A DNA stretch of 64,000 nt, taken from contig JAGWLG010000003.1 in assembly GCA_028864975.1 (NCBI GenBank), positions 86,150 through 150,149 on the forward strand. Reading direction: 5' to 3'. Shown here piece by piece: positions 45,532 through 54,587 of this stretch (positions within the stretch are counted from its first letter, which is position 1; every line of letters starts with the position of its first letter). Source of the DNA: Thermoplasmata archaeon. GTDB taxonomy: Archaea; Thermoplasmatota; Thermoplasmata; Lutacidiplasmatales; UBA184. Under the pieces are notes generated by a model. It worked only from the letters and a program-made list of their open reading frames with translations, was not told the DNA's origin and did no database searches. The translations under genes were made by a program, and so were the position numbers.

Positions 45532-46542
45532 CTACTCGAGCTCGGCGCGGCAGCGCGGGCAGAAGAGCCAGCTCTCCTCCGGGATCTGGAGACCGCAGCG
45601 CGGGCAGGTCCCTGCTCCGCCCGCCGCGGGGATGGTGGCGGTCTCGCCGCCGCCCCCTGGGGCCACCTTCGGGCGGCCCGGTGCAAGCTCCGACTGCGGA
45701 GCGACCGCGCTCCGATCGCCTCCCAGCCGCCCCAGCGGCGTAGCCCTCCACCCCTTGCGGGCAGGGGGAGGCTCGTCCGGAGGGAGGACGATCTTGGACA
45801 TCGTGGCCGACGAGGGTGGGGTCGCGGCTGAGGTCGAGCTGGAGGGTGAGGGGAGCGCCAGCATCGGTGGGGATTCGGAGAACGCAGGGCGTGGCTCGGG
45901 GGTGGGAAGGGCCGCCACCGGTGCCGGAGTGGGCTCGATGACCATCGGGGAAGTGGAGGCGAACGCGTAGGCCTCGGGCGAGCTGGCATACGTCGGGGAG
46001 ACATCGTCTTGGGTGGGTCGAGGCCGCGAGAGCGCGACGGTGGCCACCAAGATGATCGCGCCGGTCCCGGCGAGCGGCACTCCGAGCTCGGCGTACGGGA
46101 GCTCCATGCTCCCGGACCATGTGACGGCCACGGAAGCGTTCTCGTTCGAGTTCTCGTAGAGGACGAGAGCGTACCAGCTCCCGGGGGAGAGCGAGCTCGC
46201 CTTCAGCGACCAGTCGCTTTGGGGCGTGGAGATCTCGTCCAGCGCCGGGGCGCTCGGTTGAGCTCCCGACCAGACGGCTTCTCCCTCGGCGAGCGGATAG
46301 AGGTAGCCCTCGACCGGCGTGGACGTGGAGGTCGTCCAGGTGACCGTGAGCGACCCGCCCCCCAACGAGAAGTTCGCGTACGGGACCTGCACCCGAAGGA
46401 TGGCGGCGTTGTTCGAGGTCTTGAACATGTTCACGGTCTGGGGGGAGGCGGACTGGAAGTCCAGAGGAAGGAGGACCAACGCGAGGCCGACGGTGAGCGT
46501 CAGGGCCCCGAGGACCAGTCCGACGGTGCTTCCCAGGCTCAT
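45532..46542 (-). CDS. Membrane protein: TM, beta domain, TM, P/S/T linker, C-terminal zinc ribbon
   Basis: Two TM helices around a beta-rich domain; ends CPRCG...FCPRC. Confidence 0.78.
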   Translation of the reverse strand: MSLGSTVGLVLGALTLTVGLALVLLPLDFQSASPQTVNMFKTSNNAAILRVQVPYANFSLGGGSLTVTWTTSTSTPVEGYLYPLAEGEAVWSGAQPSAPALDEISTPQSDWSLKASSLSPGSWYALVLYENSNENASVAVTWSGSMELPYAELGVPLAGTGAIILVATVALSRPRPTQDDVSPTYASSPEAYAFASTSPMVIEPTPAPVAALPTPEPRPAFSESPPMLALPSPSSSTSAATPPSSATMSKIVLPPDEPPPARKGWRATPLGRLGGDRSAVAPQSELAPGRPKVAPGGGGETATIPAAGGAGTCPRCGLQIPEESWLFCPRCRAELE

Positions 46543-47535: not shown

Positions 47536-48444
47536 TCAAGGATGGAACGGAAGTCGAAGCCAGCTCCAGTCCACGATCATGGCAAGGGCGATCCCGATCA
47601 GGTAGAAGCCGGAGGCGATGAAACCGCGCAGGGCCACCTTCTTGGAGGGGTCCCGGAGGACCGGCCAGGTCATGGCGACGAACACGAGGCCCAGGACCGT
47701 CCCGAGGACGAGGAAGGGAAGGAACGGATGGCCGAGGAGCAGGAAGGCCAGAGTGGGGGCGAGCAGCAGCCCTGCCGACGCTACGACGACCCTCGCAGAG
47801 CCCACGGGGTCCCCCGGGACGGGGAGCATCGGGAGCTCGGTCCTGCCGAAGTCCTCCCGTAGAGCGATCGCCAGCGACCAGAAGTGGGGGGGGGTCCAAA
47901 GAAAGACCAGCAGCGCCAAGAGGAGCGCGCTCGGCGTGAACGTTCCCACCGCGGCCGCGCAGCCTCCGAGGACCGGGGCGCTCCCGGCGTACCCCCCGAT
48001 GACGATGTTCCAGCGGCTCCGTCGCTTGAGCAAGATGGTGTAGACCACCACGTAGACGAAGGACCCCGAGACCATCGCCAGCGTGGCCAGCAGGTTGACC
48101 AGTAGGTAGGCGATCGGGATCGAGATCGCGGTGAACACGAGCCCTAGAACGAGGACGTGACGCGCAGGGATCACCTCGAGAGGGATCGGCCGGGAACGGG
48201 TCCGCTTCATCCGGACATCCAGGTCCCGGTCGTACCAGTGATTGAGGGCCCCCGCCCCTCCAGAGGCGAAGGCGCCGGCGATGAGGAGCCCCAACAGCCT
48301 CTCCCACGGTATCCAGGGGGGTGGGTAAGGAGGCTCGGCCGCGAAGAACCCCGCCACGACCATCAACAGGATGAGCCCCGTGATCCCGGGCTTGAGGAGA
48401 GAGAGGTAGGCCCGCCACAGGGGAAGAGAGGGCTCGGCCTTCAT
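47536..48444 (-). CDS. ctaB: Protoheme IX farnesyltransferase (heme O synthase)
   Basis: LLKPGI, NHWYDRDLDVRMKRTRSRPIP, YTILLKRR, NIVIGG and WTPPHFWSLA. Confidence 0.95.
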   Translation of the reverse strand: MKAEPSLPLWRAYLSLLKPGITGLILLMVVAGFFAAEPPYPPPWIPWERLLGLLIAGAFASGGAGALNHWYDRDLDVRMKRTRSRPIPLEVIPARHVLVLGLVFTAISIPIAYLLVNLLATLAMVSGSFVYVVVYTILLKRRSRWNIVIGGYAGSAPVLGGCAAAVGTFTPSALLLALLVFLWTPPHFWSLAIALREDFGRTELPMLPVPGDPVGSARVVVASAGLLLAPTLAFLLLGHPFLPFLVLGTVLGLVFVAMTWPVLRDPSKKVALRGFIASGFYLIGIALAMIVDWSWLRLPFHP

Positions 48445-48509
48445 CGCCGTGCGCCGAGAGGATGAGGAGAGATAACCTCGCCCGCGAGGCGGTCGCTCTC
48501 GCCCTGTCC

Positions 48510-49154
48510 TCACGCGTCGGACGCGGAGGGGGGCGGGGGCGTGGGGGTCGGGTCCCCGTCCAACGAGGGAGCGTTCTTAGGCGATCCCTGCCAGTGCTCG
48601 GCCTCCTCCTTCGCCCTGCCCTCGGGCGTCAACGCGCCCACGAGGGCCTTCTGCCAGCGCGGGGAGAGGTAGGGGAAGCTGCTCAAGGTCGAGATCAGGA
48701 GCAGGACCCCGAAAAGCAGGGTCGCAAGGGCCAAGTGAAGAACGACGACCACGAGGGCGGCTTTCGTGAAGATGATGACCCCACCCACCAGGGCTTGCGC
48801 GAGGACCGACCCCGCCGCGAGGGCCGTGAGCCGCCGGATACCCGCCCGGACACCGGGAGCCATGTAGGCGAGCAAGAGCAGTCCGAAGGTGCCCAGCGCG
48901 AGGGCGAACGCGGCGAGCCGGTGGGACATCTCGAGCGTATGGTCCCCTGCGAGGAGGACCGGTGCGGACGTGGTGCACCCCGGCCAATCCGGACAGGAGA
49001 GCGAGCCCCCCGTGAAGGTCACCCCGGCCCCGAGAACGATCGTGAGGTACGCCAAGGCCGCCATGCAGAGGGCGAGATAGCGGAACCCTCTTTCCCGAGG
49101 GTCGCGAGCTCGGGCGAGAGGCTCCTCGTCCTCGGTCGCCGGGCTCACGCCCAT
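48510..49154 (-). CDS. ctaA: Heme A synthase, half-size (4-TM) form
   Basis: LGAGVT...CPDWPGC, EMSHR and VLHLALA; only one 4-helix module. Start 49154, or 49148 (GTGA overlap). Confidence 0.85.
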
Positions 49155-51478
49155 GGGTCCTCGGCGGCCGGTTTCCCGCGGTAGTAGCTCGCGACCATGT
49201 TGAAGATGAACACGAGTGTTCCGATCCCGAAGATGGTCGCCCCCACGGTGGAGAGCGCGTTGAGCTGGCCCAGGTCAAGCCCTACGGGGCTCGGCCACCA
49301 GGGGAGGTAGTCGTAGTACCTCCGAGGCATCCCGGCCATGCCGGCGAAGAACATCGGGAAGAAGAGCAAGTTCCCGCCGATGTAGGTGAGCACGAAGTGC
49401 CACAGGCCAAGGGTATGGCTGTACCAGCGGCGCGTGATGATCGGGTAGTAGAAGTAGGTCGCCGCGAAGACGCCCATGAGCGTCCCCCCGAGGATCGTGT
49501 AGTGGAAGTGGGCCACGACGAAGTAGGTCTGGTGGATGAGGTAGTCCACCGGGATCGTCCCTAGCATCACGCCGGAGAGCCCTCCGATCAGGAACATCGT
49601 CAGGAAGGCGATGACGAACCACATGGGCATCTCGAGGCGGACCCGCCCGCCCCAGATGGTCGCGAGCCAGTTGAACATCTTGACGCCGGTGGGGACCGCG
49701 ATGGCGATCGTGGTGAGCATGAAGATGAAACGGACGTTGGTCTGCTCGCCCGTCGTGAACATGTGGTGCTGCCATACGACGAACCCCAGGATCCCGATCG
49801 ACGCGATGGAGAGGGCCATCGCCGTGTAACCGAACAGGTGCTTCCGCACCATCTTGGGAAGGACCGTGGAGATGAGCCCGAAGGCGGGCAGGATGAGGAT
49901 GTAGACCTCGGGGTGTCCGAAGAACCAGAAGAGGTTCTGGTAGAGCAGAGGACCCCCCAGGGGCGACCCGTTCACCCCGTAGGTGAGGTGCGTCCCGAAG
50001 TTCCTGTCGGAGAGCACCATCGTGAGGGCCACCGACAGAGAGGGCATGGCGGCGATCACCAGGAAGCTGTTGATGAACGTGGCCCAGACGAAGATGGGCA
50101 TGTTCCAGTAGGAGATCCCGGGGGCCCGGTGCTTCATCACCGTCACGATGAAGTTGATCGCCCCGAGCATCGAGGAGATGGAGAGGAGGTGGAGCCCGGC
50201 GATCCAGATGTCGATGCCGTGCCCGGGCATGAGCGTGGTCAGCGGGACGTAGCCGGTCCATCCCCCGTTCGCCCCAGAGAGGATGATGAGCGCCCCCGCG
50301 GGAGGGATGATCCAGAAGGCGAGGTTGTTGATCCGGGGCATGGCCATGTCCCGGGCGCCGACCATGGTCGGCAGGAGGTAGTTCCCCCAGCCCGCCATGA
50401 GCGGCATCACGACCAGGAAGATCATGATGATCCCATGCTCGGTGAAGAGCGTGGAGTAGAGGTCGGGAGAGATGCCGATCACGCTCGGGTTCTCGCCGAT
50501 AGCGGGCAGGAACAGGTCGACCCGGATCAGCATCGCATAGACGCCGCCGATGATGAGGAAGGCAAAGGCGAGGGCCATGTACATCAGCCCGATCTCCTTG
50601 TGGTCGGTCGTCGTCAACCAGTGGAGGACGTAGCGGCGGAACCAGTAGGGGACCTCCCGCGTCCGAGCGAGCTTCTGGGTCGTGATCGCACGTTCCCGGA
50701 ACGAGACGTCCAGGACGTGGAAGAGGAGCGCTCCGCCCAGGACCATCAGCCCGAGGGCGAAACCTAGCGAGCTCTGCAGCCCGACCGAGGCCAGGTTCCC
50801 CAGGGTGATGATGTAGCCGGCGAGGAGACCTTCTCCTGCGAGCAGCAGCAGGATCCCGGCGAGATAGTAGTCCAGGCGGCGCGAGATGCCAGTGGGGACC
50901 GCTTCGTAGGAAGGGTAGGCGATGAAACCGTAGAAGCCCAGGATCGCCCCCAACGAGAAGGGCGCGACCCCGTAGAGCCCGTAGGCGGACTGGAGGTTCG
51001 CGGTGACGGTGATGGCCAGGCCCCCGGAGGAGGGGGACGGGAAGGGATGGCCCGAGGTCGTGTTCTGATACTCCTGCGTCATGTTGACGCTGAGCGCCGA
51101 GCTTGCGACGGTCGTGTTGAGCAGGAAGTACTGTTCGGGAGCGAGACCGAACTCGAACCCGCCCGCGCTCCCCGTTCCCACCGCGAGGAGACTTCCTGCG
51201 GTGAGACAGCGCGAGTCGGAGCAGGAGTAGACCTCGAGAGCGGTATCGGGGGGGCCGCCGGACCAGGAGATGTTGTACTCGACCGTTTCGGCGAGCGTGT
51301 AGAGGTTGGTGATCCCCAGGTGCGATCCCCCCTCCATCTGGGTGCTCGGGACGCCGTTGGGGTACGCCGGGTTCGAGCCTAGGAGCGTGAAGGACCAGGT
51401 CTGGTCCTGCGGGAGCGAGATCAGGACCCCGCCGACCGCGAGCAGGACGATGGAGAGGAGGATCGCGCTGCGGATCAT
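49145..51478 (-). CDS. ctaD: Heme-copper oxidase subunit I (A1 type) with a ~285 aa N-terminal membrane/extracytoplasmic extension
   Basis: Core starts at [11 protein letters not shown]; heme a His (TEHG), D-channel [22 protein letters not shown]-channel PTGVK and AHFHY. Confidence 0.95.
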
Positions 51479-51488
51479 GGCCGTCCTC

Positions 51489-51782
51489 TCATTCGAACAT
51501 CTCCACGCGCCGGGTCAGGTTCCCGCGGAGCCGGTCGACTCGGTAGACGATGCCGAGCGTGAGCAGCAGACAAAAGATGGCCCCGAGGATCCCCAAGACC
51601 CCCACCGGCAGCCAGAGGAGCTCTGCCCCTCCCCCCCAGGCCACCGAGAGGGCCCAGAGCCCGACCACGGTGCACACGAGCCCGAGCAAGAAGAGCCCCG
51701 AGAGGACCCCCCAGAGCACCCGGGTGCGGTACCGGGGCCTCGCCTTGGGGCTCGAGGGGGACGGCGCCTCGGGCTCAGGCAT
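51489..51782 (-). CDS. Small 2-TM membrane protein between cytochrome b and oxidase subunit I
   Basis: Two hydrophobic helices; overlaps the cytochrome b stop; operon position. Confidence 0.75.
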
Positions 51783-53247
51783 GCAGGGGAGCCTCCCCGG
51801 AGGCCTTCGCGCCTCCGCTCAACGGCGCCGAGTGCACCGAAGTGACCGCGACCGCCGCCGGAGAGGGAGACGGAACGGGCGATGGCAGGACCCTTCCCGC
51901 CCCCGCCATCCCAGGCAGCGGCCGCCGTCCGAACTTCGCAGCAACGCGCGCGCGGTAGCTCGCGCGATACATCCAGTACATGACGAAGATCACAAGCGCG
52001 TTCACGCCCGCGAGCGTTCCGAGATAGAGCGCGTAGAACGAGGCCGGGATGACCACCCCCGGCATGATCCCGCCCCAGACCGTCATCAGGATGAAGAACC
52101 CCGCCAGGAAGTTCGCGACCCCGAGCATGACCGGGCGATCGCGGGGATGCGTCTTCTTGCCCCCATCGAGGAAGGGGAAGACCTGGACGATCCAGGGGAG
52201 GAAGAGGATGAAGGCAATGACCGCCGTGACGGTTCCGACGGCCACGAACGGGCTCACGTACTGGAAGTCCGCGAGCTTGTAGAGCCACAGGAAGTACCAG
52301 TCCGGTTCGGGGGACGAGCCGCTCGCGCTCGAGGACCCGAACGGCGGGGCAAGTGCCACGGGCCAGGCCGCGGCCATCATGACCAGGAGGCCCGCGTAGA
52401 AGAGCGCCCACTTGGTCATGTAGAAGAAGACCTTCGGGAAGAACCGGCCCATCTTCGCGTCGTCCTCGTGGGTGAAGACGCGCTTGGCCCGGGGGTCGCT
52501 GGTGGCCTTGGGGGCGATCCCGTGGATCTCGAAGAGCGAGATGTGCGCGTAGAGCAGCGCCGCCAGGGCGAGCGGGATCGCGACCACGTGGAGCGCGAAC
52601 ATCCGAGAGAGGAGTCCCTGGTAGGTCCCGTCGCCCAGGATCAGCTTCGCGGTCGGGGGCCCGATGCCCGGCACGGACATCGTGAGGGCGATGCCGACGT
52701 CGGTCGCGCCCACGGAGAGCGCAGTGAACGGCAGGAGGTAGCCCGTGAACCCCATGCCGAGCATGGCGGCGAGGAGTAGGGTCCCGACCATCCAGGAGAG
52801 CTCGCGAGGCGGCTTGTAGACCCCGGCGTAGAAGCCGCGGAAGAAGTGGACGAACGCGAGGAAGATCGTCGCGTAGGCACCGTAGAGATGCGCCGATAAC
52901 AGCAGCCATCCCAGAGGGACGCCGTGAATGATGTAGTAGGTGGAGGACCAGGCCTCGGGAGGACCTCCCGGGCTCGCGCTGCTATACGAAGGGATGTAGT
53001 AGAACAGGAGCAGCAAGCCGGTCGTGACCTGGATGAGGAAGGCGTTCGCGACGAAGGCTCCCGTCCAGTAGGCCGGATTGAAGGTGAAGTCCGGCTGGGG
53101 GCGCATCCCCCACTTCTTCGTCCCGACACGGACCTCGATGAAGTCCCAGATCTTGTCCAGGGTGCGGTTGAAGGGGGGGCGGTACTCCGCGACCGCAGGA
53201 CCCGCCGCGGAGGGGCGGCGGGGTGCAGTTCCGGCGCTCTCCGTCAC
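51775..53247 (-). CDS. petB: Cytochrome b of a Rieske/cytb complex (cyt b plus subunit IV fused)
   Basis: Four heme-ligand His (SAHLYGA, FVHFFRG, ALHVV, YAHISL), WMVG, GFTGYLLP and PDWY (PEWY variant). Confidence 0.93.
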   Translation of the reverse strand: MTESAGTAPRRPSAAGPAVAEYRPPFNRTLDKIWDFIEVRVGTKKWGMRPQPDFTFNPAYWTGAFVANAFLIQVTTGLLLLFYYIPSYSSASPGGPPEAWSSTYYIIHGVPLGWLLLSAHLYGAYATIFLAFVHFFRGFYAGVYKPPRELSWMVGTLLLAAMLGMGFTGYLLPFTALSVGATDVGIALTMSVPGIGPPTAKLILGDGTYQGLLSRMFALHVVAIPLALAALLYAHISLFEIHGIAPKATSDPRAKRVFTHEDDAKMGRFFPKVFFYMTKWALFYAGLLVMMAAAWPVALAPPFGSSSASGSSPEPDWYFLWLYKLADFQYVSPFVAVGTVTAVIAFILFLPWIVQVFPFLDGGKKTHPRDRPVMLGVANFLAGFFILMTVWGGIMPGVVIPASFYALYLGTLAGVNALVIFVMYWMYRASYRARVAAKFGRRPLPGMAGAGRVLPSPVPSPSPAAVAVTSVHSAPLSGGAKASGEAPLHA

Positions 53248-53277: not shown

Positions 53278-54153
53278 CTACGGACGCTGGTCGCTCGAGG
53301 GCACCTGCAGCGCCGAGAGCGACGCCGGGATGGGTCCTGGCGTGCCTCCTAGGAGGGTCGTGAAGTGTCCCTTGACCGCGGGCCCGACCTCGTTCGTCGC
53401 GAAGAGGTTCCCGCTGGAGTCCGCCTCGAGCAGGACCTGGGGCAGGGGGAGGACCGTCGGCCCCGTCAGGATCGCGGCCCCTCCACCGTTGGCCGTGTCC
53501 GCGGCATAGGGGTTGTAGCTGGAGCCGTGGCAGATGCAGTGCATGTACGGTGCGCCGCTGTTCTTGTCCCAGGTGCCGCCCTGTAGGACGTCGCTCTCAG
53601 GGTAGTAGCTCAAGAACGGTGGGATGCACCCCAGGTGCTGGCAGATCACCGAGAAGGCGACCGGATAGTTCCCCTGCGGGGTGGGACCGTACTTCGCGTT
53701 CGGGGGCGTCCCGTACTTCCCCGCGAGGTTGAGGAGAACGTTCGGCTCGCCCTGGAGCGGGTACTGGAAGATGTACATGTCCGTCTTCGTCGGGTCGATG
53801 TGGGAGTCGATGTTGCCGAGCTGGACGGGCGTGCCATCGGCGAAGAGCAGCTGGACCCTCGGGAAGGAGGACAGCCCCTGCATCGGGGGCTGAATGTACT
53901 GCAGCGCGGCTCCCACCGCCCCACCGCCCGCCACCGCGGCCAGTCCCCCGATGGCCATGAGCTTCAGGATGTTGCGCTTGGACTCGTCGACCTCTTCCTG
54001 GACCTTCGGGCTGTTCATGTCCGGCGGCGCGACCCGACGGACGACCCCGGGCGGAGCGGGGCGGTGGAGCTCAAGGTAGAGCGCGAGGCGCGCATCGAAC
54101 CCCGGCTCATCCAGGGCAAGGTTCGAGTGCCAGCAAGGTGGGCCCTCGGTCAT
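53278..54153 (-). CDS. Rieske 2Fe-2S protein with Tat-type signal (SoxL/SoxF-like)
   Basis: KRNILK twin-arginine-like motif; CQHLGC and CICHGSSY boxes; ATGA overlap supports 54153 (alternative start 54018). Confidence 0.93.
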   Translation of the reverse strand: MTEGPPCWHSNLALDEPGFDARLALYLELHRPAPPGVVRRVAPPDMNSPKVQEEVDESKRNILKLMAIGGLAAVAGGGAVGAALQYIQPPMQGLSSFPRVQLLFADGTPVQLGNIDSHIDPTKTDMYIFQYPLQGEPNVLLNLAGKYGTPPNAKYGPTPQGNYPVAFSVICQHLGCIPPFLSYYPESDVLQGGTWDKNSGAPYMHCICHGSSYNPYAADTANGGGAAILTGPTVLPLPQVLLEADSSGNLFATNEVGPAVKGHFTTLLGGTPGPIPASLSALQVPSSDQRP

Positions 54154-54587
54154 GGTGCCTGCTCCTCCATCTCCGCGCGCTTCGCCTCCTCTTGGTCCTG
54201 CTGCCGGCGCTGCTCAAGCTCATCTTCGCCCGTCACCGCAGGGTTCGAGGCCTCCCCGGGGAGCTCGGCCTTGTCCGCGTCCTTGTAGACGTAGAGCGTG
54301 ATCGTGATCCCCAGCAGGATCACGAAGACCTCGGTCAGGTCCAGCATCTGAAAGCACGTGACCGGACCGAAGCTCGTGTTGACCGGCGCGAGCGGGCAGA
54401 CGACGGGGGGGATCGCCGAGGAAGAGGGGTCGGAGGAGTTCTGCGAGCTGTTGGCCCGGAGCGTGAGCCCGAAGTGTCCGACCCCCTGGTACGAGGCTCC
54501 GGCCAGCGCGGAGATCGATAGCGACGACAGAAGGAAGAGAGGCACCAGAAGGAGCAGGATCGCGAGCTGCAGCGACCTCCGGCTCAT
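54150..54587 (-). CDS. Uncharacterised membrane protein in the respiratory operon
   Basis: N-terminal hydrophobic signal, Cys pair, one TM, acidic tail; ATGA overlaps on both sides. Confidence 0.75.
   Translation of the reverse strand: MSRRSLQLAILLLLVPLFLLSSLSISALAGASYQGVGHFGLTLRANSSQNSSDPSSSAIPPVVCPLAPVNTSFGPVTCFQMLDLTEVFVILLGITITLYVYKDADKAELPGEASNPAVTGEDELEQRRQQDQEEAKRAEMEEQAP

Follow-up and report, generated by a model that had tools for sequence, protein, structure and literature searches.

The question raised by this locus is why the gene for a respiratory oxidase should open with a long segment that is no part of its catalytic core. In a 64,000-nucleotide stretch of DNA from a Thermoplasmata archaeon (assembly GCA_028864975.1, contig JAGWLG010000003.1, positions 86,150 to 150,149; the whole stretch is referred to here as the window), a gene for heme-copper oxidase subunit I (CoxI) lies downstream of genes for a Rieske-type iron-sulfur protein and cytochrome b, and its product carries 286 residues ahead of the canonical core. 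Is this extension real, where does it come from, and which partner does it serve? We find it to be a genuine fusion under selection. The data show that it is conserved, that it is of composite origin, and that it is genetically linked to both neighboring genes, and on balance we favor the view that the module is a permanently attached accessory subunit of an assembly of Rieske protein, cytochrome b, and oxidase, possibly bridging the two complexes.

Results

The fused frame in independent genomes

A single continuous open reading frame (ORF) of 777 codons plus a stop, on the minus strand of the window (49145..51478), encodes the module together with an A-type oxidase subunit I. The original prediction, made from the sequence of the window, described one continuous ORF with the canonical core beginning at W287, and both TIGR02891 and the solved subunit I chains indeed align from residue 286 or 287. 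The genus of the window is designated g1 here; g1–g7 are genera of one Thermoplasmata family, and g4, g5, and g6 hold most of its species. A search with residues 1–290 returned two further full-length fused proteins (P0002 and P0003, of 777 and 770 residues), whose extensions are 71% and 63% identical to that of the window. The same uninterrupted frame, 753–809 residues from stop to stop, occurs in all three other g1 species, in the three g7 species, and in the one g2 species. In all, eight other species-level genomes have the continuous fused ORF, among them G001–G004, G009, G014, and G019. Two genes joined by an error, an outcome that the prediction had allowed for, would not be expected to recur in this way in independent genomes of three genera.

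The ratio of nonsynonymous to synonymous substitution rates (dN/dS) within g1 is 0.30 for the whole extension, 0.12–0.17 for its helical part, and 0.41–0.51 for its beta part; the corresponding values within g7 are 0.08, 0.02, and 0.10, and the CoxI core, for comparison, gives 0.13. The G+C content at third codon positions (GC3), read in frame, is 0.89–0.90 in the extension versus 0.95 in the core. The start codon is supported by a Shine-Dalgarno-like site 6 nucleotides upstream and by the first residues, MIRSA, which are identical in aligned homologues from the window's own genus. The fused gene is expected, from its sequence, to be translated as a single polypeptide. A full HMMER scan of the extension against 1.8 billion cluster representatives returned seven matches only. 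One protein, P0006 (1116 residues, eight matched stretches), was rejected as a relative; it is a repeat protein of unrelated type that matches Sp38 Ig and reverse-transcriptase families in Pfam.

The fused gene and its ribosome-binding site are laid out as follows (TM, transmembrane helix).

51485..51488, minus strand: GAGG, the Shine-Dalgarno-like site, 6 nucleotides 5' of the ATG and directly after the stop of the preceding ORF, which encodes two TMs
51419..51475, minus strand: TM1, residues 2–20, N-terminal membrane anchor running from inside to outside; kept in all beta-bearing homologues
50990..51412, minus strand: extracellular beta-sandwich, residues 23–163, from predicted strands; C86/C91 pair, sequons N69 and N121, motif (Y)N(I/V)SW
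50918..50983, minus strand: TM2, residues 166–187, running from outside to inside; present in beta-bearing forms and in the second module copy of genome G010
50690..50890, minus strand: helical hairpin TM3–TM4, residues 197–263, defined by alignments; a free gene of about 120 codons in g4, g5, and g6
50621..50689, minus strand: cytoplasmic linker, residues 264–286, connecting the hairpin with the stretch just ahead of TM1 of subunit I; predicted helices 234–273 and 278–289; kept in fused forms, whereas the free g3 forms stop 10–13 residues into it
49148..50620, minus strand: A-type heme-copper oxidase subunit I core, residues 287–777, from PF00115, TIGR02891, and solved chains

A complete catalytic core

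The core belongs to a divergent member of the A-type subunit I family, since it passes the Pfam COX1 profile (PF00115; residues 296–749, E = 1.2e-142, 476.2 bits against a cut-off of 34.8, profile positions 2–436 of 436) and scores 589.7 bits with the CtaD_CoxA equivalog TIGR02891, under the cut-off of 670.75. It aligns end to end with solved A-type subunit I chains, and the fused subunit I+III chain of the Thermus thermophilus caa3 oxidase (PDB 2YEV chain A) aligns at residues 286–776. By alignment to the solved A-type chains, the heme ligands H348, H657, and H659 are present. So are the CuB site (H522, H571, and H572, with the cross-linked tyrosine Y526, in the motif H522-P-E524-V-Y526), D-channel residues E524 and D377, and K-channel residue K600 (in TGVKMF). 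All canonical metal-ligand and channel residues of the core are invariant in 29 family sequences. The window genome, a metagenome bin of 3.6 Mb in 124 contigs and 89.6% complete, has a single COX1 gene.

Predicted structure of the extension

Residues 1–286 match no Pfam or NCBIfam family, even at E ≤ 10. Solved chains gave no match either, the best hit of a 28-sequence module profile against all PDB chain sequences having an E value of 0.42. An AlphaFold2 (AF2) model of residues 1–290 has a mean predicted local distance difference test score (pLDDT) of 76 and contains long helices at residues 2–20, 167–187, 198–224, and 234–273, with a beta domain of about seven strands (residues 24–162) between helices 1 and 2. 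This is the arrangement of four hydrophobic helices around a beta domain that had been predicted, and the Cys pair (CSDSRC, C-x4-C, residues 86–91) and the four sequons that were reported with it are also in place (N69, NIS; N121, NTT; N132, NMT; N139, NTT). Every beta-bearing homologue retains the Cys pair, spaced as C-x4-6-C, and the sequons N69 and N121 are shared between genera. The other two, N132 and N139, fall within a low-confidence insertion, residues 130–146, that is restricted to the window's genus and is disordered in the AF2 model. Because an even number of helices precedes the cytoplasmic N terminus of subunit I, the beta domain lies outside, by the same parity argument that was used originally. 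Judging from its sequons, the domain may be glycosylated.

A Foldseek search of the PDB with the model of the whole module returned generic beta-sandwich and jelly-roll matches only, along with Wntless, which was returned for its overall layout. In this comparison with known beta-sandwich folds (CBM, GOLD, MAM, and the carbohydrate-binding domain of BcsB), the best matches had TM-scores of 0.2–0.5 and identities of 8–16%. A wider fold search with the same model returned generic helical hairpins only. Look-alikes of a free small subunit in the ESM Atlas all had feature scores below 0.9, and the structure matches were unrelated.

The extension had been described as unlike subunit III, and this is upheld: there is no COX3 (PF00510) match on residues 1–286 at E ≤ 10, and where COX3 is a bundle of 5 or 7 helices, the model shows four, plus a beta domain. 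The further proposal, that the extension replaces subunit III, gained little. No COX3 was found in the 89.6% complete window genome, but the module shows no tie to subunit III, be it in its sequence, its number of helices, or its placement. The module may cover part of the stabilizing role of that subunit. The bacterial subunit IV proteins CyoD, QoxD, and CtaF were likewise not recovered: neither the module nor four free homologues gave a Pfam match at E ≤ 10, and no bacterial subunit IV was among the PDB-chain matches. A subunit-IV-like role is possible despite this lack of sequence similarity.

Three units of separate history

The fusion joins three units of separate evolutionary history: the hairpin, the TM1–beta–TM2 front half, and a complete A-type subunit I. 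Across the family, the operon runs TatC, a 145-residue ORF, Rieske protein, cytochrome b, a 97-residue ORF with two TMs, the module, coxI, ctaA, and ctaB. In g4, g5, and g6, the place of the module is held by a free ORF of about 120 codons that aligns only with residues ~197–263 of the window protein. Conserved motifs of the hairpin are RRLDxY, LGPLxxPGVExSFG in the outer loop, and LLFHVxDxxYR, and Y205, H254, and R261 are invariant. A hairpin profile matches in every CoxI-bearing locus examined, including those that tblastn missed. Of 121 sampled family genomes, 111 have a match (108 of 118 without the three unpublished genomes G044, G062, and G074, whose sequences did not enter the analysis). 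A collection of 5.8 billion proteins contains, at E ≤ 0.001, 252 relatives of the small form. Among the matches listed (120 of the 252), lengths are 120–136 residues, there is no Pfam domain, and most proteins are unnamed or called "hypothetical protein"; the two small homologues with an organism name among those listed come from Thermoplasmata archaeon bins. Given the few matches, the lack of a Pfam domain, and these names, the family is narrow and unannotated. The hairpin is the ancestral small subunit, once a separate gene. The expectation of a novel accessory module holds: the extension matches no Pfam family, NCBIfam family, or solved chain, and its conserved core is a free small membrane protein beside coxI in most relatives. 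The start codon of the free genes seems to be a TTG in a conserved S-L-S-(D/E) context.

The TM1–beta–TM2 front half is restricted to g1, g2, g3, and g7. In the cytochrome b tree, these four beta-bearing genera form one group with 100/100 support, versus g4, g5, and g6. In other genera, the beta part finds weak, repeated matches in unlinked ORFs of ~170–335 residues from stop to stop (loci L050–L055; tblastn E values from 4e-10 to 3e-3; no Pfam match in those proteins). Like the module, these proteins have an N-terminal anchor, a beta domain with a WSGG-like motif and C-x4-C, and a second helix, but in most of them, a Pro-rich tail on the cytoplasmic side and a zinc ribbon take the place of the hairpin and CoxI. 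This family is the likely source of the front half, as judged from sequence likeness. A search of the window genome for beta-domain paralogues gave one marginal match, with an E value of 0.0026.

The minus strand of the window also holds, at 45532..46542, a 336-residue ORF with an anchor helix, a probable extracellular domain, a second helix, a Pro-rich tail, and a zinc ribbon, the layout of the L050–L055 proteins. It was rejected as a beta-domain paralogue (BLASTP E value of 1.3); the architecture alone is alike.

A comparison of fused and unfused forms points to the route of fusion. In unfused genera, the small protein ends in a third helix and CoxI opens with an additional hydrophobic helix, ahead of W..FTTDH; in fused proteins both boundary helices are gone. 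Removal of two helices keeps the membrane topology, with the beta domain outside and the start of the core inside. In genome G123 (g4), the stop of the small gene is missing, which leaves a 773-residue open frame (L034:1694-4015, plus strand) with both extra helices kept; its tree neighbor G088 has the stop codon. The read-through in G123 is either an independent second fusion or an error in the bin.

With its extra helix, the free CoxI of g4–g6 (loci L016, L017, L018, and others) would total 13 helices.

The surrounding operon

The neighbors of the fused gene in the window are listed below.

54150–54587, minus strand: 145-residue ORF; signal or anchor helix, Ser-rich stretch, second helix, acidic tail; no Pfam match; kept upstream of the Rieske gene in all genera
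53278..54153, minus strand: Rieske-type iron-sulfur protein gene; weak Pfam Rieske match, conserved position
51775..53247, minus strand: cytochrome b, 490 residues, upstream in the operon; Pfam PF13631 and PF00033, synteny
51489..51782, minus strand: 97-residue, two-TM ORF between cytochrome b and the fused gene; tblastn matches in all genera checked
48510–49154, minus strand: ctaA-like gene, 214 residues, short; PF02628 (COX15-CtaA) matched in two short stretches only; shares 10 nucleotides with the end of the fused gene
47536–48513, minus strand: ctaB, heme O synthase, downstream in the same operon; PF01040, synteny

The 97-residue ORF overlaps the stop codon of cytochrome b (ATGCCTGA) and ends 10 nucleotides before the fused gene. 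It travels with the hairpin, and the two are lost together in g4 genomes that have no CoxI; this ORF, too, probably encodes a subunit that has escaped annotation.

Links to CoxI and to cytochrome b

The module is linked to CoxI by one fusion in the g1/g2/g7 clade, by the read-through frame of G123, and by the joint loss of both boundary helices in the fused forms. Searches for the hairpin found nothing in four g4 genomes that lack COX1, two of which are G104 and G109.

A different picture is seen in g3, where coxI and ctaA are replaced by an unrelated gene on the opposite strand, encoding a surface protein of 1500 residues with PKD and beta-propeller domains. Here the module is a free gene of 234 codons right after cytochrome b and the 97-residue ORF, and it ends 10–13 residues past R261. 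Its dN/dS is 0.16 (G015 versus G020), and all invariant residues are kept. In G010 (g3, 98% complete), no COX1 and no COX2 were found, and cytochrome bd is the only oxidase. This genome has two Rieske/cytochrome b loci (L014 and L045), the second cytochrome b being a duplication within g3 according to the cytochrome b tree, and each locus is followed by a module copy. One copy has the beta domain, the other is a 115-residue form that lacks it, and all invariant residues are intact in both. Conversely, G005 (98% complete) is without this cytochrome b and without the module, yet has a different CoxI.

Two side observations concern g3. G010 keeps ctaB directly after the module, though no heme-copper oxidase was found there, and something other than such an oxidase may use heme O in this organism. 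A different subunit I of about 1034 residues is present in G015 (L047:3092-6193, minus strand) and also in G005, G020, and G024, with COX1 at residues 254–698, a weak sulfocyanin-like (SoxE) match at residues 77–180, and about 335 residues further without a Pfam match; by the SoxE match, a cupredoxin may be fused to the front of the protein.

Complex prediction for cytochrome b and residues 160–272 of the module, with family alignments for both, gave a score of 0.37 against 0.00 for the best control, which weakly supports contact. Runs agreed in at least 75% of contacts, and the pLDDT of the partner was at least 54. In calibration, solved complexes attained the mark in 58 of 80 cases and mismatched pairs in 2 of 110; scores of 0.60 or below accounted for only 7 of the 80 solved complexes and for both of the passing mismatches.

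Discussion

The module as an attached subunit

If the module is an attached accessory subunit, the hairpin would be a permanent structural subunit flanking subunit I on its N-terminal side. Its invariant Tyr, His, and Arg would lie at the cytoplasmic face of the membrane in a structural role and could hold a lipid or a cofactor or could contact a partner, and the beta-sandwich would cap the outer face. The hairpin could also touch cytochrome b, in which case the fused protein would tie both enzymes into a cytochrome-c-free supercomplex served by membrane-bound cupredoxins; we regard this extension of the model as possible, though short of probable. A stronger version, in which the fused protein is the covalent tether of an obligate archaeal III–IV supercomplex without cytochrome c, with the hairpin, the 97-residue protein, the 145-residue protein, and the beta-sandwich as subunits and with the Tyr/His/Arg trio binding a cofactor or lipid at the interface, seems to us rather unlikely.

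Several observations weigh against an attached subunit that serves both complexes. In G104 and G109, a divergent Rieske/cytochrome b operon persists, but coxI, the 97-residue ORF, and the hairpin have been lost together, so that gene content, when used to ask which of cytochrome b and CoxI the module follows, gives conflicting answers in g3 and g4. The dN/dS of 0.55 between G010 and G015 suggests that constraint may be relaxed where no oxidase remains. At a complex-prediction score of 0.37, wrong predictions outnumber right ones unless the pairing is already likely. The full-length AF2 model (29-row alignment, mean pLDDT of 65.9, predicted template modeling score of 0.59) is too poor to judge how the hairpin packs. 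The generic fold matches allow no function to be read from the structure, and all of the genomes are metagenome bins. The idea that the extension docks the Rieske/cytochrome b complex, which was part of the original prediction, therefore stands in part: retention of the module beside cytochrome b after loss of the cognate coxI and the weak complex score favor it, and loss of the module along with coxI in G104 and G109, where the operon was kept, does not. Taken as a whole, the pattern of gene content fits a subunit that touches both complexes.

Alternative explanations

The losses in G104 and G109 also fit a subunit of the oxidase alone, because the Rieske/cytochrome b operon remains there. 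Such a subunit would stabilize the oxidase as subunit IV or III does and make no contact with cytochrome b; its adjacency to that gene would reflect operon order, and its survival in g3 would be a leftover or a role of the beta domain. Two independent fusions to CoxI (if the one in G123 is not a bin error), the joint loss of the boundary helices, the high dN/dS in the G010 comparison, and a window genome in which no COX3 was found, so that a stabilizing subunit is missing, would all be accounted for. Harder to reconcile with this explanation is g3, where the module stays intact and constrained after deletion of its cognate coxI, and G010, where it is duplicated with Rieske/cytochrome b in a nearly complete genome; the beta domain cannot explain retention of the second copy there because that copy does not have one. 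Nor does the module resemble CyoD, QoxD, CtaF, or any oxidase subunit of solved structure in its sequence. We consider an oxidase-only role somewhat unlikely.

A role in assembly or heme handling would also explain association with both CoxI and cytochrome b. In this scenario, the His, Tyr, and Arg of the hairpin would transiently bind heme O or A from CtaB or CtaA and pass it to subunit I and perhaps to cytochrome b. The operon ends in ctaA and ctaB, the module directly precedes ctaB in G010, and the hairpin has a single invariant His in a membrane helix; the TM–beta–TM front end also recalls the layout of SURF1. The resemblance to SURF1/Shy1 is one of domain order only, with no profile match to SURF1 or any other assembly factor at E ≤ 10. 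A one-to-one fusion with the client protein would be unusual for an assembly factor, and this explanation appears quite improbable. To an artefact, whether a joining error in assembly or sequencing or a spurious upstream extension, we give next to no weight. High-GC genomes do yield long chance ORFs, many of which were seen here, and the window genome is a fragmented metagenome bin, but the in-frame junction is identical in independent assemblies from three genera, and the same frame in independent genomes, the coding-frame GC3, and purifying selection together exclude an assembly error or a chance ORF. The start is backed by GAGG and matches that of own-genus homologues, and the fused forms lack specifically the two helices that flank the gene boundary in unfused relatives.

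Relation to known oxidase subunits

We are left with the attached accessory subunit as the preferred explanation, and several known systems offer points of comparison. In the I+III fusions of T. thermophilus caa3 and Sulfolobus SoxM, an accessory membrane subunit is likewise covalently joined to subunit I. There, a true subunit III homologue is attached at the C terminus, whereas the fusion described here is N-terminal and adds four helices and an extracellular beta domain with no COX3 signature. To our knowledge, accessory fusions of subunit I are known only at the C terminus and only with subunit III. The fused oxidase of Sulfolobus works in a cytochrome-c-free assembly with a Rieske protein, cytochrome b, and a blue copper protein. 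The free form of the module resembles subunit IV (CyoD, QoxD, CtaF) and subunit IIa of ba3 oxidase in being small (about 120 residues, three helices, no cofactor motif) and encoded in an oxidase operon, and it probably packs against subunit I. It differs from them in several respects: there is no detectable similarity (Pfam at E ≤ 10, solved chains), the gene lies upstream of coxI and not after subunit III, there is an invariant Tyr/His/Arg trio, and the g3 form is kept beside cytochrome b without a cognate coxI.

In the CIII2CIV2 supercomplex of Mycobacterium smegmatis, shown by structures, AscF and AscG are lineage-specific accessory subunits (PMC13456599; reviewed in PMC8361435). As may be the case here, the obligate III–IV assemblies of actinobacteria contain small, taxon-restricted, membrane-anchored subunits, some with extracytoplasmic domains. 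There is no homology between the two sets, however; the archaeal assembly is deduced from gene order, fusion, and gene content, and its carrier would be a cupredoxin and not a fused cytochrome c. By every sequence test that was run, the module falls outside the subunit IV, subunit IIa, subunit III, and actinobacterial subunit families.

The fusion is real, conserved, and undescribed in the literature searched, and the function of the module is what we infer from these comparisons. Full-text searches turned up no account of either the fusion or the small subunit. A study of Angelarchaeales places coxAB and complex III at separate loci (PMC9038741), and those archaea are probably a different lineage.

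Overall, the window protein is an N-terminal fusion that joins an unannotated family of small subunits and an extracellular domain to a catalytic core. The fusion serves as a Rosetta stone, in that it marks the ORF of about 120 codons between cytochrome b and coxI, present in well over a hundred Thermoplasmata species, as a physical partner of the oxidase. It also allows the ~120-residue ORF, the 97-residue two-TM ORF, and the fused extension to be labeled as respiratory-complex subunits rather than as hypothetical proteins or gene-calling errors. If the module also contacts cytochrome b, these archaea would have a new kind of supercomplex, with cupredoxins in place of cytochrome c.

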